A stretch of DNA of 64,000 nucleotides from Gammaproteobacteria bacterium (GTDB lineage Bacteria > Pseudomonadota > Gammaproteobacteria > CBDBNL01 > JAAOII01), in the NCBI GenBank assembly GCA_965209035.1, contig OZ242372.1, positions 800,001-864,000 of the forward strand, read 5' to 3'. Of this stretch, positions 16,144-62,278 are shown one piece after another. Under the pieces are notes generated by a model that was given only the letters and a program-made list of their open reading frames with translations, did no database searches and was not told the DNA's origin. The stretch's first letter is position 1, and every line of letters begins with the position of its first letter. The translations under genes and the position numbers were made by a program.

Positions 16144-16155
16144 GGGGCATCTATG

Positions 16156-16203
16156 TTTTTGGGTTTTTAGGTTTTTGGGTTTTTGGGTTTTTGGGTTTTT
16201 AGG
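16156..16203. repeat. 8-bp tandem repeat (TTTTT-RGG)x6
   Basis: tttttggg/tttttagg units directly after the rsmE stop. Confidence 0.9.
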
Positions 16204-16349: not shown

Positions 16350-17381
16350 TCAGGGAATAAGATGTCGCACCGAGTCGCGCTCTTCCAATAATTCGGTCTG
16401 TGATTTCTCCATTCCGGCGCGACTGAACTCATTAATTTCCAGATCTTTAACGATCCTGTATTCGCCGTTGGCACATGTCACCGGATAGGAATAAAAAATG
16501 CCCTTACCCAGGTCATACTCGCCGTTGCCAAAAATTGCCATACTGGTCCAATCATCGGCACTATGATCTGCTAGGATGGCAGACATTTCGCCGCAGCTCC
16601 CATCATCAGTGGAGGTACCGAGTTGCCAGTCGCGCATAGCACAAAGTGCGGCATTGGCGGCACTGGCGGCACTGGATGCGCCGCGCGTTTGAATAACCTC
16701 TGTGCCGCGTTTTTGCACACGCGGGATCATCTCCTGTTGATACCAGGTGTTGTCAATCAATCCCAAAGCCGGTTTGTAGTCGATTGTCGCATGATGAATG
16801 TCGGGGAACTGCGTAACCGAGTGATTACCCCAAACAATGACACGCCGAACATCGGCGTTGAGATGTTCGCTCTTCATCGCAAGTTGGGCTTGAGTCCTAT
16901 TATGGTCAAGACGCATCATCGCGCTGAACCGGTTCGATGCCAGGTCCGGCGCATTGGACATAGCGATCAGCGCGTTGGTATTGGCGGGATTGCCAACTAC
17001 CAAAACTCGCACATCGCGGGCGGCCACTGCATTGATCGCCTTCCCCTGAACGGAAAAAATCTCGGCATTGGCGCCGAGTAAGTCTTTGCGCTCCATCCCG
17101 GCACTTCTGGGTCTGGCGCCGACCAAAAAAGCAAAATTGGCATCCGCAAATGCCACATTCGGGTCGGCGGTGCAGACCGTTTTATGCAATAGAGGGAACG
17201 CACAGTCGTCCAACTCCATCGCAACTCCCTTAAGCCCGTCAAGGGCTGCCGGAACTTCCAACAGATGCAAAATAACCGGCTGGTCCTTGCCTAACAATTG
17301 CCCGCTGGCAATCCGAAAAATAAGCGCATAACCGATCTGTCCGGCTCCGCCGGTGACCGTCACAATTTGAGGTTGTTTCAT
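16350..17381 (-). CDS. mdh: Malate dehydrogenase (type 2)
   Basis: [39 protein letters not shown]. Confidence 0.97.
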
Positions 17382-17513
17382 AATGCTTCTATTATACTTT
17401 TATGCTTTTACTTTAACCCGATGACGCTTAAGAAAAAAGAAGTTTCCTCATAATTGAAAACCGCGAAGGACCGGATACCGCGCCTGGCCCGCCCCGGATC
17501 GCGCACTTCCATT

Positions 17514-18641
17514 TCACTTATATTCCCCTTTATCTTCTCTCAGATTGGGGGCATTGATGAGCAAGCGGAGAAGTGGCCTATGAACATAATAATAAGATCT
17601 GGCATGATATTTGTTTTCTTCTACCATGCCTATTTCTTTTAGAATACCGATATACTTGATCGCAGTTAGAGGTGAAATCCTCAGCTCGGTTGTCAAGAGT
17701 TTGCGGGTGATGATCGGATATTGAAAGAGTGCATTGAGTAGATCCTGGCTGTAAATTTTCGTTTCGTTTCGCAATCGGTCTTTTTGCTCCCGCATCAGTT
17801 CCTTTATCTTGGATATGGTTTCCAGGGTTCCGCGCGCGGTGGTATCCGCCGCACGCAGGATGTATGCAATCCACTCGCGCCAGGTTTCGGCATCTTGTCG
17901 CAACCTCACTTTCTGCAAAAGTTCATAGTATTTGGCTTTGTTGTGCGTAATGTAGCGACTGAGATATAGGATAGGGCTATCCAGCAGACCGGCCATGATG
18001 AGATAAAGAATGCAGATCATCCGCCCTGTTCTGCCTTTGCCATCGTAAAAAGGGTGAACGCTCTCAAATTGATGATGAATCAACGCCATTCGGACCAAGG
18101 GATGCAGGTCGTCCAATTCGCCCTGCTTGGTATTAATGTATTCCAACAGGTTGTTGAGCAGGGAAAGAATTTCTTGCTCATCTTGCGGCGGTGTGTAAAC
18201 GATCTCGCCGCCGCTGTTCTTAAGCACCGTGCCGGGAAGTTTGCGAATGCCCGCATTATTGGCAAGCAGTTTTTCTTGTATGGCACAAAGGAGATCCAAC
18301 CTGAAATGCCCTTCTTCCTTTATTGTTTCGTATCCGTGAAGCATGGCGGGGATATAGTTGTGAACTTCCTTGGCGGCGGGATTTTGAGAACCCATTTTTG
18401 CTCGTGCCATAAACAGATCGTCGTGGGTCGTGATGATGTTTTCTATTTCGGAACTGTCCTTTGCCTCCTGTATGGGTAAAGTGGAAAGCAGTATACTTTT
18501 GTTGGGTATGGACTCGGCCATGCCCTTTAGTTCGGCAAGGCTACTGCGAGCGTCCCCCAATAACAGAGCCAGCCGTATATCCATTAATTTTAATGATAAC
18601 GGAAGGCACTCTATTTGGGCAACTTGAGTATTGATCGTCAT
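17514..18641 (-). CDS. Fic/DOC family protein (SoFic-like: N-terminal inhibitory helix, Fic domain, probable C-terminal winged HTH)
   Basis: EAKDSSEIENIITT (S/TxxxEG/N inhibition motif), HHQFESVHPFYDGKGRTGR, PILYLSRYI; the C-terminus (ITRKLLTTELRISPLTAIKYIGILKEIGMV) looks HTH-like. Confidence 0.92.
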   Translation of the reverse strand: MTINTQVAQIECLPLSLKLMDIRLALLLGDARSSLAELKGMAESIPNKSILLSTLPIQEAKDSSEIENIITTHDDLFMARAKMGSQNPAAKEVHNYIPAMLHGYETIKEEGHFRLDLLCAIQEKLLANNAGIRKLPGTVLKNSGGEIVYTPPQDEQEILSLLNNLLEYINTKQGELDDLHPLVRMALIHHQFESVHPFYDGKGRTGRMICILYLIMAGLLDSPILYLSRYITHNKAKYYELLQKVRLRQDAETWREWIAYILRAADTTARGTLETISKIKELMREQKDRLRNETKIYSQDLLNALFQYPIITRKLLTTELRISPLTAIKYIGILKEIGMVEENKYHARSYYYVHRPLLRLLINAPNLREDKGEYK

Positions 18642-18676
18642 AAGAGGTAATTGGTGTTGTTATACCAATAAGTATA

Positions 18677-19359
18677 CATAAAAAATGGTAAAAAGTATAT
18701 AACCTTCCAAAAGATTATATAAAAAATAGTAAAAAGTATATAAACCTTCAAAGGAATGTATAAAAAATAGCAAAAAGTATATAACCTTCTAAAAGATTAT
18801 ATAAAAAATAGTAAAAAATATATAAACCTTCAAAGGAATGTATAAAAAATAGCAAAAAGTATATAACCTTCCAAAAGATTATATAAAAAATGGTAAAAAG
18901 TATATAACCTTCCAAAAGATTATATAAAAAATGGTAAAAAGTATATAACCTTCCAAAAGATTATATAAAAAATAGCAAAAAGTATATAACCTTCTAAAAG
19001 ATTATATAAAAAATAGCAAAAAGTATATAACCTTCCAAAAGATTATATAAAAAATGGTAAAAAATTTATAGATATAGTATGAACTACAAACAAATAGCAT
19101 AAAAGTTTATAGATATAGTATGAACTACAAACAAATAGCATAAAAGTTTATAGATAAAGGACTATCTATAAAGAAATACCAAAAAAGTTTATAGATGAAG
19201 GACTATCTATAAAGAAATGCCGAAAAAGTTTATAGATGAAGGACTATCTATAAAGAAATGCCGAAAAAGTTTATAGATGAAGGACTATCTATAAAGAAAT
19301 GCCGAAAAAGTTTATAGATGAAGGACTATCTATAAAGAAATGCCGAAAAAGTTTATAGA
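18677..19359. repeat. Non-coding tandem array with exact 41-bp period (16 full units, three subfamilies)
   Basis: Unit anchors at 18695, 18736, 18777 ... 19351, always +41. Nine type-A units (GTATATAACCTTCCAAAAGATTATATAAAAAATGGTAAAAA and variants), two type-B (GTTTATAGATATAGTATGAACTACAAACAAATAGCATAAAA), five type-C (GTTTATAGATGAAGGACTATCTATAAAGAAATGCCGAAAAA). Confidence 0.96.
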
Positions 19360-19418
19360 CAAAAAAGCCTTTTCCGGTTCGGTAAACGCATGCATCCCGT
19401 CAATTGCAGACGGGTCTC

Positions 19419-19970
19419 CTATTTGTCGGGGACGGGCGAAAGTAACCCTGTCAGTTTGTTGACCGTTCGCCAATTTCTGGTAGTGGCGGACATCTTAAGT
19501 TTGGACTCAAAGAATGTATTGGATAGTCTGGTGCGCGCATAACCGGCCGGCAGGTAAAAGAACAGTTCGCGCCCGCACAGTCGCACCTCTTCGCCGGATA
19601 TCTTGACACGCTCAATTGCCGGCAGCGGCAGGGAAGCGGGTTCTTCGGACAGAAAGGTAACATAAATGATGTTGGTGCCATCCGTTGAGTTCACAAAGGG
19701 ACAAGCGGCAATTGTCTGTTGCCATTGTGCCGCCGTGCGAACAAACACTTTAATTTGCAACCCAAATGCCTTCTCTATTGTTCTTTCCAAAGAACCTTCC
19801 AATTGCTCGGCCGGCTGCCTGTGTGCGGTGAACACCACATTCCCGCTTTGAATATAGGTACTCACTTTTTTAAGCCCTGTCTCTTCGTAAACGGCCGCCA
19901 ATTCCTTCATACGGATAGGATTTCGCCCCGCCATATTGACACCGCGCAACAGAGAAACATAGGTTTCCAT
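19419..19970 (-). CDS. DUF1697 family protein
   Basis: YVSLLRGVNMAG, TYIQSGNVVF, TTRNWRTV. Confidence 0.9.
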   Translation of the reverse strand: METYVSLLRGVNMAGRNPIRMKELAAVYEETGLKKVSTYIQSGNVVFTAHRQPAEQLEGSLERTIEKAFGLQIKVFVRTAAQWQQTIAACPFVNSTDGTNIIYVTFLSEEPASLPLPAIERVKISGEEVRLCGRELFFYLPAGYARTRLSNTFFESKLKMSATTRNWRTVNKLTGLLSPVPDK

Positions 19971-24001: not shown

Positions 24002-24895
24002 ATGGCCACCTACGCCATAGGAGACATTCACGGCTGTTACCGCTCTTTGCGAGCATTACTGGAAAAAATAAACTACCGTCCGCAGACGGACATCCTTTGG
24101 TTCACCGGCGACCTGGTCGGCAAGGGCCCCGAACCCTTACGGGTCTTGCGACAAATAAAAAGCATGCACGAGGAGAATCCGCGCCTGCAAATTGTTTTGG
24201 GGAATCACGATCTGCATCTGATAGCGACGGCTCTTGCCGTTTTTGAACCGGCGGCGGAAGCAAAGCAGGACCCAACGCTTGCCGAGACGCTCGCCGCGGA
24301 TGCGAAGGACCCGACCCTGCTGGACTGGCTGAGGTGCCAGCCGCTGCTCTGTCATAGCCGCGAACATCACACGGTATTGACCCATGCCGGCATCCCGCAC
24401 ATTTGGACATTGAACACTGCGAAGCAACAGGCACGCACCATCGAAAAATTGCTGCGGCTCCCCCGACCGGAATTAAAAAAAGCCCTGCCTCTGCTCTATG
24501 GCAACCGCCCGAACGGTTGGTCGCAATGTGCCGATTTTTGGGACAGAGCGCGTTTGAGCGTGAACTATCTCACACGCATGCGGTTTTGTGACAACCGCGG
24601 CAGCTTGGATTTGGAACAAACGGGAAAAACACACCCGAATTCGGACTATGCCCCCTGGTTTTCCTACGAACCGCTTGTCACACAACGGCAAGTCTTTGGT
24701 CACTGGGCGGCATTACGCGGCAAAACCGGCAAGCCGGGTATTTGGGGGATGGATTACGGCTGTGTGTGGGGCGATACTCTGGCCGCTCGCAGCCCGGAGG
24801 ACGGCAGGTGTTATTTCGCCCCCTATGCCGAAAAAATATCATCCGAAAAAACATCACCAAAAAAAATGCCGCCCGACAAAGTAACCCCTCAATAA
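24002..24895 (+). CDS. apaH: Symmetrical bis(5'-nucleosyl)-tetraphosphatase
   Basis: MATYAIGDIHGC, TGDLVGKGP, VLGNHDLHL, HAGI, LTRMRF, FGHWAAL, GCVWG. Confidence 0.96.
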   Translation: MATYAIGDIHGCYRSLRALLEKINYRPQTDILWFTGDLVGKGPEPLRVLRQIKSMHEENPRLQIVLGNHDLHLIATALAVFEPAAEAKQDPTLAETLAADAKDPTLLDWLRCQPLLCHSREHHTVLTHAGIPHIWTLNTAKQQARTIEKLLRLPRPELKKALPLLYGNRPNGWSQCADFWDRARLSVNYLTRMRFCDNRGSLDLEQTGKTHPNSDYAPWFSYEPLVTQRQVFGHWAALRGKTGKPGIWGMDYGCVWGDTLAARSPEDGRCYFAPYAEKISSEKTSPKKMPPDKVTPQ

Positions 24896-24970
24896 TCCCA
24901 ACAATCCCAACAACCCCAACAATCCCAATAATCCCAACAACCCCAATAATCCCAACAACCCCAACAATCT
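24890..24970. repeat. 9-bp tandem repeat (CAAYAAYCC)x9
   Basis: caataatcc/caacaatcc/caacaaccc units starting at the apaH stop codon. Confidence 0.9.
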
Positions 24971-29400: not shown

Positions 29401-32400
29401 AAGCGCAGATTACGCACAGTGCCACTCGCCGCACCAAACAACCCAACACCATACCTGTTGGCCGCAGCACGAATAGGCAAATTGGATAACTCGTTCCCGC
29501 CGCCGTCAAAGATCCCGGAATAAGGCACACAGTCGTCCGCCGCGGCGCAAAAGCCAATCGGTCGCCAGTCACCGCCGCTCCAATCGGCATAGTAGGTTAC
29601 CGGACTCCGATAGGCTGCCGGGTTCCGATAAGATGCCCTGTCTTGAAAGTCCAATGAGTGCACCAGTTCATAGCCGAAGCAACCACCGATCGGACAGCCG
29701 TTATCCCCCAATGCCTCAAAAGTGTCGGCCTGAGAGTTATCCTGGCCATCGCCGTCCCAATCGGCATTCAAGCTCTCCAGATCGTCCAAAAAGTAAATCT
29801 CTATCAGACCGTTGTTATCATCGTCTCTGTCCACTAAGTTTTCTTCAAAGTCCCCGTCACTGTCCTCACAAGCATCTCCCAGACCATTTCTATCCTCATC
29901 GGTCTGCAACGGATTAGGTACAAACTGACAACTATCGAGCGTATCATTCACACCATCATTATCATCATCCGGGTCCAAAAAGTTCGGCAGCAGATCGGAG
30001 TCAAAGTTGATACCTGTGACGACACTTCTACTGACAGGACCATATCGCCGCCCATCAACGCCAACCAAAATAACCGACACATTATAACGCACGCGGTTCT
30101 GCAAACGCCGAATAGCATAAGCAGCCGTGCCATCGGAATCAAGTTGGGTTCTTTTGGTAGCCATCCTTTCCCGTCCGCCACCGCTCCAATGAATTTCAAA
30201 TGCCTTGATCGCACCAAACGGATTAACCCAGTTCAACTCAATATTGGTACTACCCGGTTGCGCCCTCAGATTAAAGACGGAGCCTATCGCACTTTCGCGG
30301 CGGCCTTGTCCTCGACTCAATAACTTTTCGAAAACACAGGTGAGTGCCGGATACTGAGCGATATCGCCCAGATCCCAAGCACGCCGAATATCCTCCGTCA
30401 AGTCCGTAGCATCGTCCGTATCCGTAAAGGCTCCCGTGGCCGAATCACACCAAAAGTCTGCCCAATTGCCGTAAACTCCTTGAAAAAGAATCTCCCTTTG
30501 CAACGCCCCGGTTGTGAGACCCTCGCCGGGGGCCGCAGGATTACTGTCCTCTTGCCCCGTTCGTTGTACATCCCAATAAGAATTTTCAGCGGTAAAATCA
30601 TCGGTCCCCGCAAGACCACCGACAAAAGAAGAACCCGTTACGGGTCCGTTGGCCGCATAAGAAGAAACAATCCGCGCGGAAGGACTTGCCACAATGTAAC
30701 CCACCAGGCCGCCCACATAACTCTCGCCACTGACCGGACCGCCGACCGCATAAGAAGCAATAATGGAAGACGAACCCCCGCGCCCGAGCAAGCCACCCAC
30801 AGCTTCGCCCCCGGCACCGCCGCCAACCCTTTGGCCGGCCGCATAGGAGCCTCTGATCATCGCATTCGTCCCGTCTCCAATCAAGCCGCCAATATTTTGT
30901 GTCCTATCGCCACCGCGGATATCTCCGCCGGACATATAAGAATTGGTGATCATCGCATCTACTCCTTTGCCTATCAGTCCGCCAAGATCACGCGAGTTGT
31001 CACCGCCACTGACATTTGTGTCCGCCACATAGGACACATCAACCTCCGCATCGCGGCCGTTGCCGATCAAGCCGCCGACAGACGTCGCCTCTCCGGACGA
31101 GCCGACAGTACCCTCCGTAAAAGACGAAAACTGAACTCTTGCATCCTGACCCGATCCCGCCAGACCACCCACGGAATAGGCATTTTGACTCAATACATGG
31201 CCTTCAATGACCACATGTTCCGCAACAATGCCGTTGCCAAATCCCACAAGAACCCCGATATGTCCTTTGCCACCGGTGATGTTGGCGTCTATCAGCCGCA
31301 AATTCCGGACAGAACCGGAAGCGGCGCCAAACAAACCGACACCATAGTCATCGGCAGCGGCGCGAATACGGAGGTTGGCAATGGTATGATCGTTTCCTTC
31401 AAATACCCCCGCGTATGGAACACACGCAGAACCGGAAGAGCAAAAACCAATAGACACCCAATTAGCCGACAGAACCGCCATACTGCTGTTCGCATCCGCA
31501 TAGGAATCTGCCAAATTAAAATCCAAAGAACGCGCGAGTTCGTAACCAATGCACCCGTCCGAATGGCAGCCAATGCTTCCCGCCGCAGTCACATTATCAC
31601 CGGCATCGTCAAAACGATTGTCATCGTTTCCGTCACCATTGAGATCATCGCGCATACCGACAAGATCTTCAATCGCATCAATTTCTATTAGCCTATTATT
31701 GTCCCTGTCACTATCCAAAAGATCTATAATGCCGTCTCCGTCCAAATCTTCCCGATCACAAACATCACCAATTTCATCGTCATCCAGATCTCTTTGCATC
31801 GGGTTGAAATCCAACGGACAATTATCATCCGCATCCGCAACTCCGTCATCATCCGCATCCGCAATTCCGTCACCATCCGCATCCGCGTGATTGTCGTCAT
31901 TGTCATCCAAAGAATCCGGCAAACTGTCATTATCCGCATTCGGACCGGGCCGACGGATAATAGCAACGGAAGAATACGCTTGACCGTCCGTGGCAACCAC
32001 AACAACCGAAATTGTATAATTGCGCGCGTTATCCAAGTTCTCTACTGCGTATGCGGCCAACGCGTGCGAAGCACGCTCGGTTCGCTTAACAACACTTCCG
32101 CGCGAACCCAAAGTCTGCCAGGTAATGTTAAACAATTCTGTTTCACCATGCGGATTTTGCCAACTCAATCGGATACTATTATTCGCCGGAATACCCGCAA
32201 GATCGCGCACGGGCGCCGCAGCCGGAAAATACTGCACGGCACGCGCATTGGAAATACAATTCAAATACGGATAACGATGCGCCTCACCGGCACGCCAGGC
32301 AATGTTAGCCGATTGGGCAATCGCATGACTCGCATCCGTCGTGAATATGCCGGCAGTCGCATCACACCAAGCATTACTCCAGTTCGAATAAATGCTACTG

Positions 32401-34244
32401 CCGATTTGAGCGGTTTGTAATTCCTCACCGAATTGACCCAAACCACCGCCCGAACTCTCGCTTTGATTCGTCGTGCGATTATCCCAGTAAGAACCCCCAA
32501 TTGTCGCGGCGTCCCCAACGCCAGCCAATCCGCCCACCAAACGAGTGCCACTTACCAAACCACCGGCAACATAAGACTGACGCACCCGCGCCCGCGGCGC
32601 ATGACCCAACAAACCGCCAACCGCAACATCACCGCTAACGGACTCCCGCCGCGCATAAGTGGCAACAAAATCGGCAGCCGAACCATCACCGGCCAAACCC
32701 CCTACCGCATAGTGACCCAACACCGCAGCACCGCTTGCAAAAGACGCGGCAACAGCCGACATACTGCCGTTACCTACCAGACCGCCAACAGCTCTTTCGC
32801 CTCGCACCGGACCATCAAATGCAAACGAAGCAACCATGCCGGCCCCGCGCCCGTCACCAACCAAGCCGCCAACCCGATTCCTTCCGTTAATCAGAGTTAA
32901 AGCGGAAAATGAAAAGTTAATCTGCGCATCCCGGCCATCGCCAATCAAACCGCCAACAGCATCCCCACCGCGCACCGAACCGGCAGCCGCGGATGCAAAG
33001 CGAACCGTCGCATTTTGTGCATCGCCCAACAAGCCGCCAACACCCACGGAACCCACGGCCCCAAATACGCTCCCTTGCACCGAAACATTGGCAACGAATG
33101 CCCCCCGAGCATAACCGGCAAAAATACCAACCGCCGACAAACCTTCGCGAATTTCGGCATCCGGCACCCGCAGATTTTTCAACTCACCCGAAACCGCACC
33201 AAACAAACCCACACCAATCTGTTGGACACCGGCATTTACGAACAAACCACTAAGCCGATGACCATTACCATCAAAAACAGCCGCATAAGGACTACAAGTA
33301 TCCGCAGACGAACAAAAACCAATCGGCACCCAGTCGCCACCACTCCAGCCGGCATAATTGGTAGCCGGATCCCGATAGGATGTCCTGTTTTTAAAATCCA
33401 AAGAACGCACCAATTCATAGCCAACGCAGCCCGCGGGCAGACAACCTTCGCTCCCCAAGGTCACCACATTATCCGCAGGACCATTAAAACGATTATCGTC
33501 CTCGCCATCCCCGTCAAGATCATCGCGCAACGATGCCAGATCTTCCAAAGTGTAAATCTCTATGAGAGCATTGCCGTCCCGATCACGGTCATCAATGTCC
33601 GTCACATTATCATCATCCGCATCACCGCAAGCATCGCCGAGCGCATCCGTCTCACTGTTAAAGTTCGCCTGATCCGGGTTGGATACCAACCGGCAGTTAT
33701 CATCCGCATCCGCAATTCCGTCACCATCCGCATCCGCAATTCCGTCATCATCCGCAATTCCGTCATCATCCGCATCCGTGTGATTGTCATCATTGTCATC
33801 CAAAGAATCCGGCAAACTGTCATTATCCGCATTCGAACCGGGCCGACGGATAATAGCAACGGAAGGATACGCTTGACCGTCCGAAGTCTGCAGCAATACG
33901 ACAATGGTGTAATTGAAAGCATTATCCAGATTAATGATGTTATAAGATGCCGACAGCTGAGATGAAATTTCGTCCGTCTTCATGGCAGAACTTGAGCCAC
34001 CGCCGCCCATTCCCTGCCAAGTGATATTAAAAAAGGCTATACGGCCGAACGGATTACGCCACATCAGTCGTATCGACTTGTCCGCGGGAATACCACTAAG
34101 ATTGGATACAGCTTCGCTGGCCGCCAACTGTTGTCGGATGCCGAATGTAGTACCTCGGTTACTCGCATTCTCGCAAGCGACGAGAAGTAAAACAAACACT
34201 AAGAGAGTAGGAAAAAACCCGCAGGCTTTTTTAATAATCATCAT
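26412..34244 (-). CDS. Giant (2610 aa) acidic surface lipoprotein/adhesin with four ~650-aa modules (FN3-like, thrombospondin type-3 Ca-binding repeats, GLUG-type Gly-rich repeats)
   Basis: Lipobox LLVA-C; recurring W.NP FN3-like strand, DNCP..FNP.Q.D.D..GD.C, DNNGLIEI..L.DL, GC.GYEL.RSLDF, many VGGL.G repeats, and module end W..G....YP.L.C. Confidence 0.8.
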   Translation of the reverse strand: MMIIKKACGFFPTLLVFVLLLVACENASNRGTTFGIRQQLAASEAVSNLSGIPADKSIRLMWRNPFGRIAFFNITWQGMGGGGSSSAMKTDEISSQLSASYNIINLDNAFNYTIVVLLQTSDGQAYPSVAIIRRPGSNADNDSLPDSLDDNDDNHTDADDDGIADDDGIADADGDGIADADDNCRLVSNPDQANFNSETDALGDACGDADDDNVTDIDDRDRDGNALIEIYTLEDLASLRDDLDGDGEDDNRFNGPADNVVTLGSEGCLPAGCVGYELVRSLDFKNRTSYRDPATNYAGWSGGDWVPIGFCSSADTCSPYAAVFDGNGHRLSGLFVNAGVQQIGVGLFGAVSGELKNLRVPDAEIREGLSAVGIFAGYARGAFVANVSVQGSVFGAVGSVGVGGLLGDAQNATVRFASAAAGSVRGGDAVGGLIGDGRDAQINFSFSALTLINGRNRVGGLVGDGRGAGMVASFAFDGPVRGERAVGGLVGNGSMSAVAASFASGAAVLGHYAVGGLAGDGSAADFVATYARRESVSGDVAVGGLLGHAPRARVRQSYVAGGLVSGTRLVGGLAGVGDAATIGGSYWDNRTTNQSESSGGGLGQFGEELQTAQIGSSIYSNWSNAWCDATAGIFTTDASHAIAQSANIAWRAGEAHRYPYLNCISNARAVQYFPAAAPVRDLAGIPANNSIRLSWQNPHGETELFNITWQTLGSRGSVVKRTERASHALAAYAVENLDNARNYTISVVVVATDGQAYSSVAIIRRPGPNADNDSLPDSLDDNDDNHADADGDGIADADDDGVADADDNCPLDFNPMQRDLDDDEIGDVCDREDLDGDGIIDLLDSDRDNNRLIEIDAIEDLVGMRDDLNGDGNDDNRFDDAGDNVTAAGSIGCHSDGCIGYELARSLDFNLADSYADANSSMAVLSANWVSIGFCSSGSACVPYAGVFEGNDHTIANLRIRAAADDYGVGLFGAASGSVRNLRLIDANITGGKGHIGVLVGFGNGIVAEHVVIEGHVLSQNAYSVGGLAGSGQDARVQFSSFTEGTVGSSGEATSVGGLIGNGRDAEVDVSYVADTNVSGGDNSRDLGGLIGKGVDAMITNSYMSGGDIRGGDRTQNIGGLIGDGTNAMIRGSYAAGQRVGGGAGGEAVGGLLGRGGSSSIIASYAVGGPVSGESYVGGLVGYIVASPSARIVSSYAANGPVTGSSFVGGLAGTDDFTAENSYWDVQRTGQEDSNPAAPGEGLTTGALQREILFQGVYGNWADFWCDSATGAFTDTDDATDLTEDIRRAWDLGDIAQYPALTCVFEKLLSRGQGRRESAIGSVFNLRAQPGSTNIELNWVNPFGAIKAFEIHWSGGGRERMATKRTQLDSDGTAAYAIRRLQNRVRYNVSVILVGVDGRRYGPVSRSVVTGINFDSDLLPNFLDPDDDNDGVNDTLDSCQFVPNPLQTDEDRNGLGDACEDSDGDFEENLVDRDDDNNGLIEIYFLDDLESLNADWDGDGQDNSQADTFEALGDNGCPIGGCFGYELVHSLDFQDRASYRNPAAYRSPVTYYADWSGGDWRPIGFCAAADDCVPYSGIFDGGGNELSNLPIRAAANRYGVGLFGAASGTVRNLRLKNVTIAGGEGDIGTLAGYGRGLVADNVSVVGTDIASPDATSVGGLVGDGSGTEILFSSVTGGSVLGESRVGGLLGTDADGSVIRSSFFTDGRVSGRGVLGGLLGFGIRTAINFSYVADANVRGNLNSYGRLGGFGGETQGVKIVASYTSDVNVSVPAVNSVATAVGGLLGASRDSILNGNRMTPRIVASYTLGGAVIGDSRVGGFVGDPQFGDVSSSIEVVSSYALNGPIVETSNGGQIGTFLGTSLSAPNFAENSYWNSDATGLTRALPSDQPSGALGLSGTALQQPTNFTGIYAAWGNFWCDPSTGTFAETDDATELTTDAYRAWDLGDVDQYPALTCVPGGVMSRGQGRPVAKGPVRDLVAAPLAGGVLLSWMNPSGETRAIEINWQGAGVTRTVLSTDELRSSVRAFYRLENLADETEYNISLFVIAADGRRYGPTNTSVITGRNTDGDLLPDFLDPDDDNDDVNDDTDNCPMLFNPLQTDKNRNNIGDVCEDTDGDNVIGLNDADDDNNGLIEIHTLDDLARLRDDLDGDGADDGRITGITAVGSVGCPSSGCAGYELARSLNFSDADSYNASSVNMDDWTDPAGSGWVPIGSCSNENTCNARYTATFDGGGYHIADLFIAAADTVSGVGLFASLQDGSIQNLRLLNANVSGGAANVGLLVGFTGSGSARYENLSVIGGTITSPGRNRVGGMIGYAESASGSHVEIRDSHVSDIVVSGDASVGGLIGQADEATIRAVSVFNVTVAGTGRGVGGLVGVMNDAMIRAVSVFGGTVTGTNNIGGMVGERLTGESLDPSTSNVQPVEIHHSYVSGVDVSGNNQVGGLIGSGDISTIHHSYVVGGRVFGNNRVGGLVGGGGPDIRYSYVATPVSGGRAVGGLLGSNVLRSTLTPTVIASYWDNEITGQSTSAGTPGSRGEGKTMPELQDPTTFADSIYADWGNFWCDPDSLEIRENRTAGGPGAPFVPVWDLGGVDQYPALACVPGGIVGSGQGR

Positions 34245-48836: not shown

Positions 48837-49604
48837 ATGGAAAAAAGACACTATGAAGTTTTGTTGATTCTTCGCCCGACCGAAGACGAAAAGATCGCCG
48901 GGCTGGTTGACGAGTATGTGCGTATTCTTAAAGAAGACGGCGAAATAGAGCGTATGGAGCAATGGGGGTTACGCCGGCTTGCCTATGCCATCAAAGATCA
49001 CCGGCGCGGCTTTTATGTTCTGATAAACACCTGTTGCCGGTCTTCCGCCATAGAAAAATTGGAAGAACGGTTCCGATTTGAAGACAATATTTTGCGTTTT
49101 ATGATCATGCGGCAACGAAAAGCACAAACCGGAGAATCACCGGTTGTCCTATCCGCAAAAAATTCAAGGGACAGAGACGGGGACAGGGACAGAGACGGGG
49201 ACAGAAACAGAGACGGGGACAGGAACAGAAACAGAAACAGGAACAGAGATACCGGTTATCAAAAAACCGATACAAGTCCTCCCAAAGAATTGCCGAAAGC
49301 CGCAGAACGCGCGGAAGATTGGAGCGGCGAAAATGTGGACCCGGACGCAACGGACATAACACAACCCAAGTCGGACGATACCGATACTACGCCGGAGAAT
49401 CCCAAAAAAGAATCCGAGTCGAACCCCGTCCGGCAAGACAGCGATCCCGAATCGCCCACACCCGAAATAACGGGCGAAGCATCGGATGCTTCTCTTAAGG
49501 GTAAAGAAGAAACAAGCGAGCAATCGGACAAGCCCGGCAACCCCGACAACGACAATCAAGATAATACCGAAGAAGATAACACCAAAGAAGAAAAGAAAAA
49601 ATAA
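48837..49604 (+). CDS. rpsF: 30S ribosomal protein S6 with a ~150-aa low-complexity acidic C-terminal extension
   Basis: [34 protein letters not shown]; first gene of rpsF-rpsR-rplI. Confidence 0.92.
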
Positions 49605-61024: not shown

Positions 61025-62278
61025 TTACTCTTGCAAAAACCGAAACATTGCGCACCGGACCGCATGCATACCCGGCAACCAAGTATGCAGATGCACATGC
61101 CTGCTCCAAGAAATCGGTAACAGATTAAGAACACGCGCCACGAACTCGCTTTTTTCAAAGTCTCGGGCGGAAACGGTTAACAACTCGGTTCCTTCTTTTT
61201 CAATTAAAAAGTCCGGCTGCGCGCCGGCACGGATCACATAGCCATCGCCCTCTTTTGTCCAATCGGAAAAATCAAAACTTATTGCGTCCCGTTGTCCCTG
61301 CTCGCTTAATTGCTTCTTTAATAAAATCCGCTGACGCGTTCTTTCGCCCACACCCGCAACAGCCAACCAGGGGGTTTTGTTTTCACGCAGAAGTTGCAAT
61401 TTCTGTCTGTATTCAAATCCCTGCCGCAAAAAAATATCCAACAGATCCGATTTCAAGCCAACGCTATTTTGCCAGCCAACGCGATCTTGCCAGCCAACGC
61501 GATCTTGCCAGCCAACGCGATCTTGATAGTCTCGCAGCATTCTTAAAACCTCCGACGACCAGTTATCTCGCCGCCAAAGGTCCGTTTCACAAATCGTCTG
61601 ATCCGGCAACAGATGATACGCCGCCGGGACTAATTGCAACGGCCGGCGATGCGCATGCAATCCGCACAGCATCTGCCAAACAATTTCGGAGCTGCCCGCA
61701 AAGGGTGAGCCAAGCGTGACGACCTTATTAATATTGCCGGCACATTGCGGTCGCCAACCTTCCTTTCTTCTCGCGGATGCAAGATAGCCGGCGGCAAGCA
61801 GCCCGCCCATGGAATGACCGACAAGATTCACCCGATCGGCAACCGAATTCGGGCGAGTTGGAGTTGCATCCTTGTTTCCATTGGCACGCATGTCGTCGCG
61901 ATGCACGCCGCCGCCGCCCAACCGAGTATCTTGCAAAACCGCCTTTATAAAGTCATCCAGTTTGCGCTCTGTCTGTTCCAACGGCATACGCCAATCATAG
62001 GGAAACGGATAAACACCCGTGAGATACCGCAAGTTTACAAACAACTTTCGGTAAACAGCCGGGATAACGGAAAGTGGCAGGATCCTCCCGTCATGCCCGT
62101 CGTTCCCATTATTGCCCCGCAAGTTTAAATACTCGCCCGGATGCGGAATAATCGCCTCCATTTCCGCCGGCTTTGGCTTGAAAAAACTGCGCAGTTCCCA
62201 AATCACTTTTGGCGGCACCTCGTATCTTTGTGCCAAGACAGATGTGGGAAAGCCCGGCAAAATGATCGTAGGGAACAT
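61025..62278 (-). CDS. Alpha/beta hydrolase, LCAT/PGAP1-like lipase or acyltransferase
   Basis: IILPGF, FPYDWR, VGHSMGGL, TLGSPFAGS, GDGYV. Confidence 0.82.
   Translation of the reverse strand: MFPTIILPGFPTSVLAQRYEVPPKVIWELRSFFKPKPAEMEAIIPHPGEYLNLRGNNGNDGHDGRILPLSVIPAVYRKLFVNLRYLTGVYPFPYDWRMPLEQTERKLDDFIKAVLQDTRLGGGGVHRDDMRANGNKDATPTRPNSVADRVNLVGHSMGGLLAAGYLASARRKEGWRPQCAGNINKVVTLGSPFAGSSEIVWQMLCGLHAHRRPLQLVPAAYHLLPDQTICETDLWRRDNWSSEVLRMLRDYQDRVGWQDRVGWQDRVGWQNSVGLKSDLLDIFLRQGFEYRQKLQLLRENKTPWLAVAGVGERTRQRILLKKQLSEQGQRDAISFDFSDWTKEGDGYVIRAGAQPDFLIEKEGTELLTVSARDFEKSEFVARVLNLLPISWSRHVHLHTWLPGMHAVRCAMFRFLQE
61469..61525. repeat. In-frame 18-bp tandem repeat x3 (QDRVGW) in the hydrolase
   Basis: ttgccagccaacgcgatc repeated three times. 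Confidence 0.9.

Follow-up and report, generated by a model that had tools for sequence, protein, structure and literature searches.

A 41-bp phased palindrome array before a SoFic-family gene, a probable amplified autoregulatory operator

The fic locus and its array

We analysed a stretch of 64,000 nucleotides from the genome of a gammaproteobacterium (GCA_965209035.1, contig OZ242372.1, positions 800,001 to 864,000), hereafter called the window. It carries a gene for a class II Fic protein of the SoFic family, preceded by a long array of 41-bp units (Table 1). When the sequence was laid out in 41-bp rows from position 18660, the array was resolved into 17 consecutive units of exactly 41 bp each, without any indel (18660-19359). 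This confirmed the invariant 41-bp array that a first-pass annotation of the window had described upstream of the Fic start, and showed that it holds 16 palindromes. Tandem Repeats Finder reported the array as two overlapping rows, 18678-19070 (period 41, 9.6 copies, 89% matches, score 621) and 19046-19359 (period 41, 7.7 copies, 93% matches, 0% indels, score 404).

Table 1. The fic gene, its leader and the units of the array, in window positions.
Feature	Positions	Strand	Description and basis
SoFic-family class II Fic gene, 375 aa	17514..18641	-	Open reading frame list, domain and structure matches
Leader between array and ATG	18642..18659	-	Read from the sequence
Unit 0	18660..18700	.	Degenerate, gene-proximal; 27-30 of 41 positions identical to type A
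Type A, nine 41-bp units	18701..19069	.	31-41 of 41 positions identical among units 1-9
Type B, units 10-11	19070..19151	.	Mutually identical; palindrome GTTTATAG...CTACAAAC
Type C, units 12-16 plus 3 bp	19152..19359	.	38-41 of 41 positions identical; four of the five identical; TTTATAGA-N10-TCTATAAA

Type A and type C units are alike at merely 19-21 of 41 positions, and the type A block includes two identical copies of a variant, A' (at 18742 and 18824). Each full unit nevertheless contains a palindrome, and the 16 palindromes follow each other in unbroken register, 41 bp apart, from 18696 to 19311. Type A units contain the palindrome TATATAA-N12-TTATATA (nine starts in the array when up to two substitutions are allowed), phased A-tracts and a weak sigma-70-like hexamer pair facing fic. 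The palindrome of type C units, TTTATAGA-N10-TCTATAAA, has seven starts. The centres of the half-sites are alternately 19 and 22 bp apart in type A and 18 and 23 bp apart in type C, close to the spacing of about 20 and 21 bp given by the first-pass annotation. The array has a GC content of 21.6%, lower than that of the window (49.8%) and of the fic gene (46.4%). The A-tract power of the array is maximal at the fourth harmonic of the period, i.e., 10.25 bp (9.9, against 4.4-5.5 at neighbouring harmonics), and only type A units have several A-tracts each.

The promoter scan listed 14 promoter-like sites in 17300-19600, of which 11 are on the minus strand within 18694-19051, in type A units and at the edge of unit 0; shuffled sequences gave 7.1 sites (standard deviation 2.7). 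The nearest unit ends 18 nt from the fic ATG, which is 36 bp from the start of the first Tandem Repeats Finder row (18678). The leader is preceded by TGGTATAAC (18667 to 18659, minus strand), which resembles an extended -10 element and may act as one; it was not listed by the promoter scan because there is no -35 hexamer at that place. The same scan found no terminator-like site between the array and the gene. The units stand head to tail without the unique spacers of a CRISPR array, and an Rfam search of the array returned a single chance-level miRNA match (E = 0.65). We folded three-unit pieces of both strands as RNA, and two of the four segments folded better than shuffled sequences (z = -4.7 and -3.1). 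Instead of a hairpin for each unit, the predicted folds showed long-range pairings nested within each other, and both strands folded.

The Fic protein

The product of the gene contains the Pfam domains Fic_N (2.2e-26), Fic (9.1e-16) and SoFic-like_C (PF21248, 1.3e-06), the last being a winged helix with a score of 29 bits (cut-off 27). A search with the PADLOC SoFic defence model gave a match at 2.1e-103 (model positions 14-358 of 361), and the NCBIfam SoFic equivalog scored 304 bits, under the cut-off of 550. Its nearest solved chains are 9vjc_A (2.4e-68) and SoFic (3eqx_A, 1.2e-63), and the match to SoFic chains spans residues 12-362. The inhibitory motif (S/T)xxxE(G/N) is present as SSEIEN, the same being found in 41 of the 83 aligned sequences. 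The catalytic motif is given as HxFx(D/E)(A/G)N(G/K)R (PMC10628234), from which the window protein, with HPFYDGKGRTGR, departs: a Lys replaces the Asn that is kept by all 82 other aligned homologues (N202K). Twelve of the 100 highly conserved alignment columns are changed in this protein, and its frame is unbroken across 375 aa. The Lys suggests that the enzyme may be altered or dead, which weakens the 'toxin' part of the toxin/array system proposed by the first-pass annotation.

The neighbours of fic in the window are genes for malate dehydrogenase (mdh), a DUF1697 protein and a pyridoxal phosphate-dependent decarboxylase. The open reading frame list and the domain scan of the window revealed no rep, par or integrase gene adjoining the array.

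Phased palindromes accompany fic genes across phyla

Scanning one genome per species, we found at least 592 relatives and kept the best 80 (46-52% identity, from many phyla), of which 77 upstream regions were analysed. For these 77 loci, the mean upstream autocorrelation reached 0.333 at a lag of 41 and 0.300 at a lag of 82 (all-lag mean 0.276, standard deviation 0.009). No comparable peak was observed downstream, 800 bp further upstream or within the gene of the same loci. A stringent per-locus test at lags 40-42 was passed upstream by 14 of the 77 loci and downstream by six, and at each of seven other lag triplets by none of the 77. Inverted repeats had an excess of centres lying 20-22 bp (42 of 77 loci), 40-42 bp (34), 60-62 bp (26) and 81-83 bp (25) apart, the nine other spacings tried giving 12-25 loci. 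The 20.5/41-bp periodicity for which the first-pass annotation had proposed a test is therefore present upstream of Fic homologues, both as a lag-41 peak and as multiples of about 20.5 bp between inverted-repeat centres. Array and Fic gene belong together. With a score threshold of 50, Tandem Repeats Finder detected 40/41-bp repeats of 2-3.5 copies abutting fic in 11 of the 80 loci.

The usual element consists of three palindromes, TGTAWAGAAAA-N-TTTTCTWTACA, in 41-bp register. In five Bacteroidota loci the last palindrome arm lies 1-3 nt from the ATG. The linker that precedes the last palindrome in Bacteroidota reads TAnnTTTG, which we take to be the -7 promoter box of this phylum. The half-site motif had 116 hits in around 16.4 kb of upstream flank, 30 in the downstream flank and seven in 60.2 kb of distant control sequence, i.e., it is about 60 times denser upstream of fic than 600-1000 bp away. 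In the one E. coli locus studied (L110, chromosome of strain S10), palindromes upstream of fic extend as far as the ATG, and their centres are 30 and 70 bp apart. In its annotation the SoFic-type fic of this locus carries a frameshift, and another gene of the Fic family comes after it. SoFic-type fic genes occur in 278 of 5426 complete E. coli genomes.

Homologous Fic genes are frequent on plasmids (701 records matched). Among eight named plasmid loci, the top lag was 40-42 upstream in five and 41 downstream in one; of the other two, one had lags of 83/42/41 downstream and one was aperiodic with two motif hits. HsdM- or HsdR-like neighbours were found in 18 of the 80 homologous loci. Some loci have phased palindromes downstream of fic and before Type I restriction genes, either in the gap between fic and hsdR (L028, L036, L041, L085) or before hsdM (L076). 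We also observed an array before a GNAT gene (L063) and a fic located between hsdM and hsdS (L121). The Fic protein might thus be a controller of the neighbouring restriction operon.

Half-sites follow the recognition helix

The sequence of the half-site co-varies with the recognition helix of the winged helix across homologues, a relation that the first-pass annotation had proposed to test. When the conserved 'SR' of the helix is followed by I, L, V or M, at least two motif hits are found in 38 of 61 loci, against three of 19 when it is followed by another residue. Loci with R, Q, K or A after 'SR' have palindromes of other sequence (ACGTGG, CCGTGA, ATGTTAG, TGTTCAC). None of the six 'KH' variants of the helix had at least two motif hits, and the one 'KH' locus inspected (L102) has related but different half-sites, TGATAAG/TGTTAAG. 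The helix of the window protein is itself deviant (SPLTAIKY, with a Pro for a near-invariant Arg, R324P), and the half-sites of the window are likewise off consensus. Mismatches between the arms of 385 palindromes comprised 106 G:T against 120 A:C and 375 others, and hence show no wobble bias.

Amplified arrays in the same bacterial family

Two other genomes of the same bacterial family (G002 and G003) have arrays directly before the start codon of a close Fic homologue. The array of G003 has seven clear palindromes spaced by 40 bp (8.2 copies according to Tandem Repeats Finder). That of G002 has 11 palindromes with spacings of 30, 40, 30, 41, 41, 30, 40, 41, 41 and 30 bp, which differ by one helical turn. 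We left out G004, in which the contig stops inside the fic gene, and G001 lacks a close Fic homologue. Seven or more palindromes occur in each of the three loci assembled for this family; none of the 80 other loci has as many, the maximum there being 3.5 copies. In the sister genus, fic is located upstream of a YggS-like gene and not beside mdh, so that gene and array stay together in different surroundings. The Fic frame of G002 (L007 571-2589) continues, uninterrupted by a stop codon, across a repeat of the TTDTNPPP type and into a YggS-like domain (672 aa). The two are separate overlapping genes in G003, and their joining in G002 could reflect either a true fusion or faulty assembly.

Of the 83 proteins, the three whose arrays are amplified diverge most, and they are placed on long branches. 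A quick tree groups the window protein with those of G002 and G003 (94 in the Shimodaira-Hasegawa-like approximate likelihood ratio test, SH-aLRT), a grouping to be read with long-branch attraction in mind. The departures M162L and D180H are common to the three proteins and favour common descent over independent origin in two genera. The catalytic motif is canonical in the proteins of G002 and G003.

The array in its genome and in other assemblies

The array matches its own 2.24-Mb genome once, at itself. We thus found no copy unlinked to Fic in the 2.24 Mb, which the first-pass annotation had considered as a test of the linkage. The genome hits of the palindromes fall inside the array in seven of seven cases for type C and seven of seven for type A, and for the 'outer' versions in seven of eight and six of six. 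The palindromes are therefore private to the fic locus in this genome, which fits a local autoregulatory role. Contigs assembled from three sequencing runs of a single sample, which is probably the one the genome came from, are interrupted at the array. The piece containing unit C has about four times the depth of its flanks (82.8 against 17-20, and 110.2 against 27-32), which fits four to five identical C units. Reads of four runs revealed neither joints nor copy-number variants. For a comparison of copy number, one further sample bears the same species label; it yielded 13 reads (90-99% likeness), zero of them on the array. The relatives of the locus in metagenomes amount to two loci at 45-46% identity, with nothing closer. 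In the relatives compared for synteny, cca adjoins mdh, and neither Fic nor DUF1697 is present within 1.5 kb. We dropped the definition of insertion boundaries by synteny because these relatives are too distant (around 60% identity in mdh).

The genome has other repeats. It encodes a second Fic paralogue (Fic_N, Fic and HTH_13 domains, 28% identical), with an AT-rich repeat of 40 bp x 2.3 (G000:C1:1258848-1258941; L026 2849-2942) that ends 64 bp before the ATG. An array of 40 bp x 11.7 with a GC fraction of 0.46 (G000:C1:882216-882654) lies 18 kb beyond the window and adjoins a gene for a TSP3/GLUG-repeat protein; its sequence is unrelated to that of the Fic array. Two long CRISPR-like arrays are found at G000:C1:1956421-1963216; their repeat ends in AATTTCTACTGTTGTAGAT and is presumably of the Cas12a type. 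Within the window, an 8-bp unit, GTTTTTGG, is repeated 5.8 times at 16155-16200, between the 3' ends of an rsmE-like gene and mdh. Short-period repeats (9, 24 and 18 bp) at 24890-24969, 31824-31886, 33701-33778, 49167-49249 and 61456-61525 are probably coding.

Relation to known systems

The closest described case is CccR of Yersinia pseudotuberculosis, a dimer of a Fic protein with a domain of the helix-turn-helix (HTH) type, which footprints on AGATAATCAT-N26-ATGATAATCT and represses its own promoter (PMC9755527). Its DNA-reading helices are 70.2 Å apart, its regulatory and enzymatic activities are separable, and the protein is a secreted effector of the type VI secretion system (PMC9755527). 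As in the window, a Fic domain is combined with a C-terminal HTH and an inverted repeat lies in the gene's own promoter; binding was shown for CccR and is predicted here. CccR has one site, of two 10-bp arms 26 bp apart, whereas the window has 16-17 sites in 41-bp phase with other half-sites. This likeness is one of description, not of alignment of the two protein sequences.

SoFic of Shewanella oneidensis binds, as a dimer and not as a monomer, the AT-rich 100 bp immediately upstream of its start codon, and its AMPylation activity requires the dimer (10.64898/2026.07.09.737422). The window protein resembles SoFic in the order of its domains and in its strong matches to hidden Markov models and PDB sequences. 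It differs by falling below the equivalog cut-off and by the Lys in place of the motif Asn, and its array is about five times the usual size. The available text of the SoFic preprint describes neither a binding motif nor a 41-bp phasing (10.64898/2026.07.09.737422). CbFic2 of Coxiella burnetii is also a class II Fic protein with a winged helix, and DNA binding alters how it oligomerises as well as how it acts as an enzyme: in the presence of DNA it forms dimers, its deAMPylation is stimulated and its auto-AMPylation is lost (PMC10628234). That study reported binding with random DNA and describes CbFic2 as a host-directed effector, and the text available describes no operator array (PMC10628234).

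EcSofic is described as a toxin of the SoFic family that needs a neutralising partner encoded alongside, AS1 (PMC12249575). This partner is a 47-aa protein encoded downstream of the toxin gene, unlike the upstream DNA array of the window (PMC12249575). The window's open reading frame list was the extent of the search for an AS1-like frame. We considered whether AS1 could be a misread downstream array, and rejected this since in one E. coli locus (S10) the repeats are upstream, with a period of 70 bp, and nothing periodic is found downstream. Our search of the literature, in main texts, for phased repeats at Fic genes returned CccR, SoFic, CbFic2 and AS1, and no 41-bp operator.

Two other classes of repeats have a comparable layout. 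In type III toxin-antitoxin systems (ToxIN), short tandem repeats lie right upstream of the toxin gene, but there the repeats function at the RNA level and an endoribonuclease serves as the toxin. The evidence in the window points instead to palindromes of double-stranded DNA: the gene encodes a Fic protein, and the features of a type III system that we looked for (terminator-like site, wobble bias, Rfam family) are absent. Multi-site operators, iterons and centromere repeats have many phased protein-binding sites, which are loaded cooperatively on one face of the DNA. The array differs from iterons and centromeres because rep and partition genes are absent beside it and its partner is an enzyme with a DNA-binding tail.

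An amplified operator as the best explanation

We think it probable that the array is the operator through which the adjacent SoFic-family gene regulates itself, and that amplification has raised the usual number of three phased palindromes to 16-17. The comparative evidence, together with the work on CccR and SoFic, makes binding by the winged helix of Fic the most likely role of the array. The binding platform proposed by the first-pass annotation is therefore likely, but not its size: the ancestral element has about three units rather than thirty sites. Fic homodimers joined via their N-terminal helices would present two winged helices, with one dimer per palindrome. Sites placed every 41 bp, i.e., every four helical turns, would put the dimers on one face of the DNA, and we propose that their binding may be cooperative. 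Occupation of the promoter-proximal units would hold down the transcription of an AMPylase that may be toxic.

Types A, B and C plausibly derive from the three units of the ancestral element, which unequal recombination or slippage would have multiplied each in its place, as suggested by the A-B-C order. The blocks of identical units indicate that this copying was recent. The period is exact even though half of the bases differ, and the spacings of G002 change in steps of one turn, from which we infer that the phase is under constraint. The large size itself may stem from repeat drift or from selection, be it for a tighter switch or for a holding platform.

That a Fic protein with a winged helix regulates its own gene via palindromes in its promoter is already published (PMC9755527; 10.64898/2026.07.09.737422). 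The first-pass annotation therefore went too far in calling the system undescribed. Judging from our literature search and the text available, the novelty lies in the arrangement of three phased sites over the start codon that is found family-wide, in its co-variation with the helix, and in the version with 16-17 sites.

Several observations weigh against this explanation. Binding by the window protein and repression of its promoter are predictions from sequence. Six near-invariant positions of its winged helix are changed (Y310I, T311I, K312T, R324P, L331I, N354H), which, with the 29-bit score of SoFic-like_C, suggests that DNA binding could be altered or lost. The geometry is loose: the half-site centres are 18-23 bp apart, or around 61-78 Å, compared with 70.2 Å between the helices of CccR, whose own site has centres 36 bp apart. 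The last half-site ends around 18 nt before the ATG and does not touch it. Six of the 77 homologous loci carry sites downstream of fic. In two of the eight downstream-site loci inspected (L056, L081) these sites fall in the gap between convergent genes, a place where one would not expect a promoter, so that promoter control cannot be the sole role of such sites. Finally, the 2.24-Mb genome has 440 Tandem Repeats Finder rows with a score of at least 80, a number for which there is no baseline, and one of its arrays, AT-rich and of 40 bp x 3.6, has no adjacent Fic (G000:C1:1809672-1809817; L023 3173-3318). The amplification may thus reflect a genome-wide mutational habit. The latter array includes an inverted repeat, AAACTT...AAGTTT, and lies between secG and a pair formed by a DNA methylase and a DpnII-like nuclease.

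A different role for the amplification, which we consider unlikely, is that of an adaptive sink or sensor. Around 17 dimer sites per chromosome would hold most of the Fic protein DNA-bound and harmless, and amplification would have been selected. Loss of DNA, damage or competition, e.g., during phage attack, would then free the enzyme and lead to abortive infection or addiction. Such a role is in line with the match to the PADLOC SoFic defence model, with the Hsd-like genes beside 18 of the 80 homologous loci and with the confinement of arrays of at least seven palindromes to the three loci of this bacterial family. It would also fit the sites kept in promoterless places (L056, L081) and the effect of DNA on CbFic2, where dimers, more deAMPylation and no auto-AMPylation result (PMC10628234). 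Yet the AMPylation activity of SoFic needs the dimer (10.64898/2026.07.09.737422), so DNA-bound dimers need not be the safe state, and the window protein, lacking an Asn that all 82 compared homologues keep, may not be an active toxin. Extended to the family, the same idea would have SoFic enzymes run by a phased DNA platform, here enlarged into a chromosomal store on whose 16-17 sites most of the enzyme would be bound as dimers, with the state of the DNA (intact, degraded or out-competed by incoming DNA) deciding on the release of the enzyme; we regard this too as unlikely. If true, a defence or addiction module consisting of a single gene would be triggered by the integrity of DNA, and a corollary from the homologues with sites before hsdR or hsdM is that Fic may control a Type I restriction system.

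It is rather improbable that the locus is decaying, with an operator that expanded as a neutral minisatellite, a gene that lost its enzymatic and perhaps its DNA-binding function, and an array that is now idle. The N202K replacement and the 12 changed conserved columns are what one would expect of such a gene, as are the long branches of the three proteins with amplified arrays. The blocks of identical units speak for ongoing copying, in a genome rich in other tandem arrays, including the 40-bp ones by the second Fic paralogue and by the restriction-modification pair. Decay agrees less well with an intact frame of 375 aa, and with 17 units that keep exactly 41 bp without indels although types A and C differ at around half of their positions. 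Moreover, both arms of the palindrome changed jointly between types A, B and C, and the arrays of G002 and G003 are amplified even though the catalytic motif of their proteins is canonical.

We see little chance that the array serves another factor or has a structural role, e.g., as iterons or centromere of a former mobile element, or as curved DNA acting on the promoter. The AT-richness, the A-tracts in helical phase, the abundance of homologous Fic genes on plasmids and the different gene context in the sister genus would be compatible with it. No rep, par or integrase gene adjoins the array in the window, however, and several A-tracts per unit are confined to type A. What accompanies the sites across phyla is the Fic gene itself, and the half-site changes with the helix by which Fic would recognise DNA. 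Last, that the transcribed repeats act as RNA hairpins, e.g., as a type III antitoxin-like RNA neutralising Fic, is the least credible option in spite of the ToxI/ToxN-like layout of around 41-nt tandem repeats upstream of a toxin-type gene, the occurrence of sites on either side of fic among homologues and the better-than-shuffled folding of two segments, since the arms show no wobble bias, both strands fold as expected of any palindrome and without a hairpin per unit, there is no terminator-like site before the gene and only a chance-level Rfam match, Fic is not an endoribonuclease, and the half-site co-varies with a DNA-reading helix.

Implications for the SoFic family

How SoFic-type defence enzymes are silenced and released is described as an open question in recent work (PMC12249575; 10.64898/2026.07.09.737422). 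Our results offer a cis element for the whole family, with a defined half-site, a phasing of 41 bp (or 30/40 bp), a position at the start codon and co-variation with the recognition helix. The natural extremes, with seven, 11 and 16 palindromes, could show if the number of sites tunes repression or sequesters the enzyme. Of the loci situated within Type I restriction operons (18 of 80), several carry the same sites before hsdR or hsdM, which hints that Fic also controls its neighbours.

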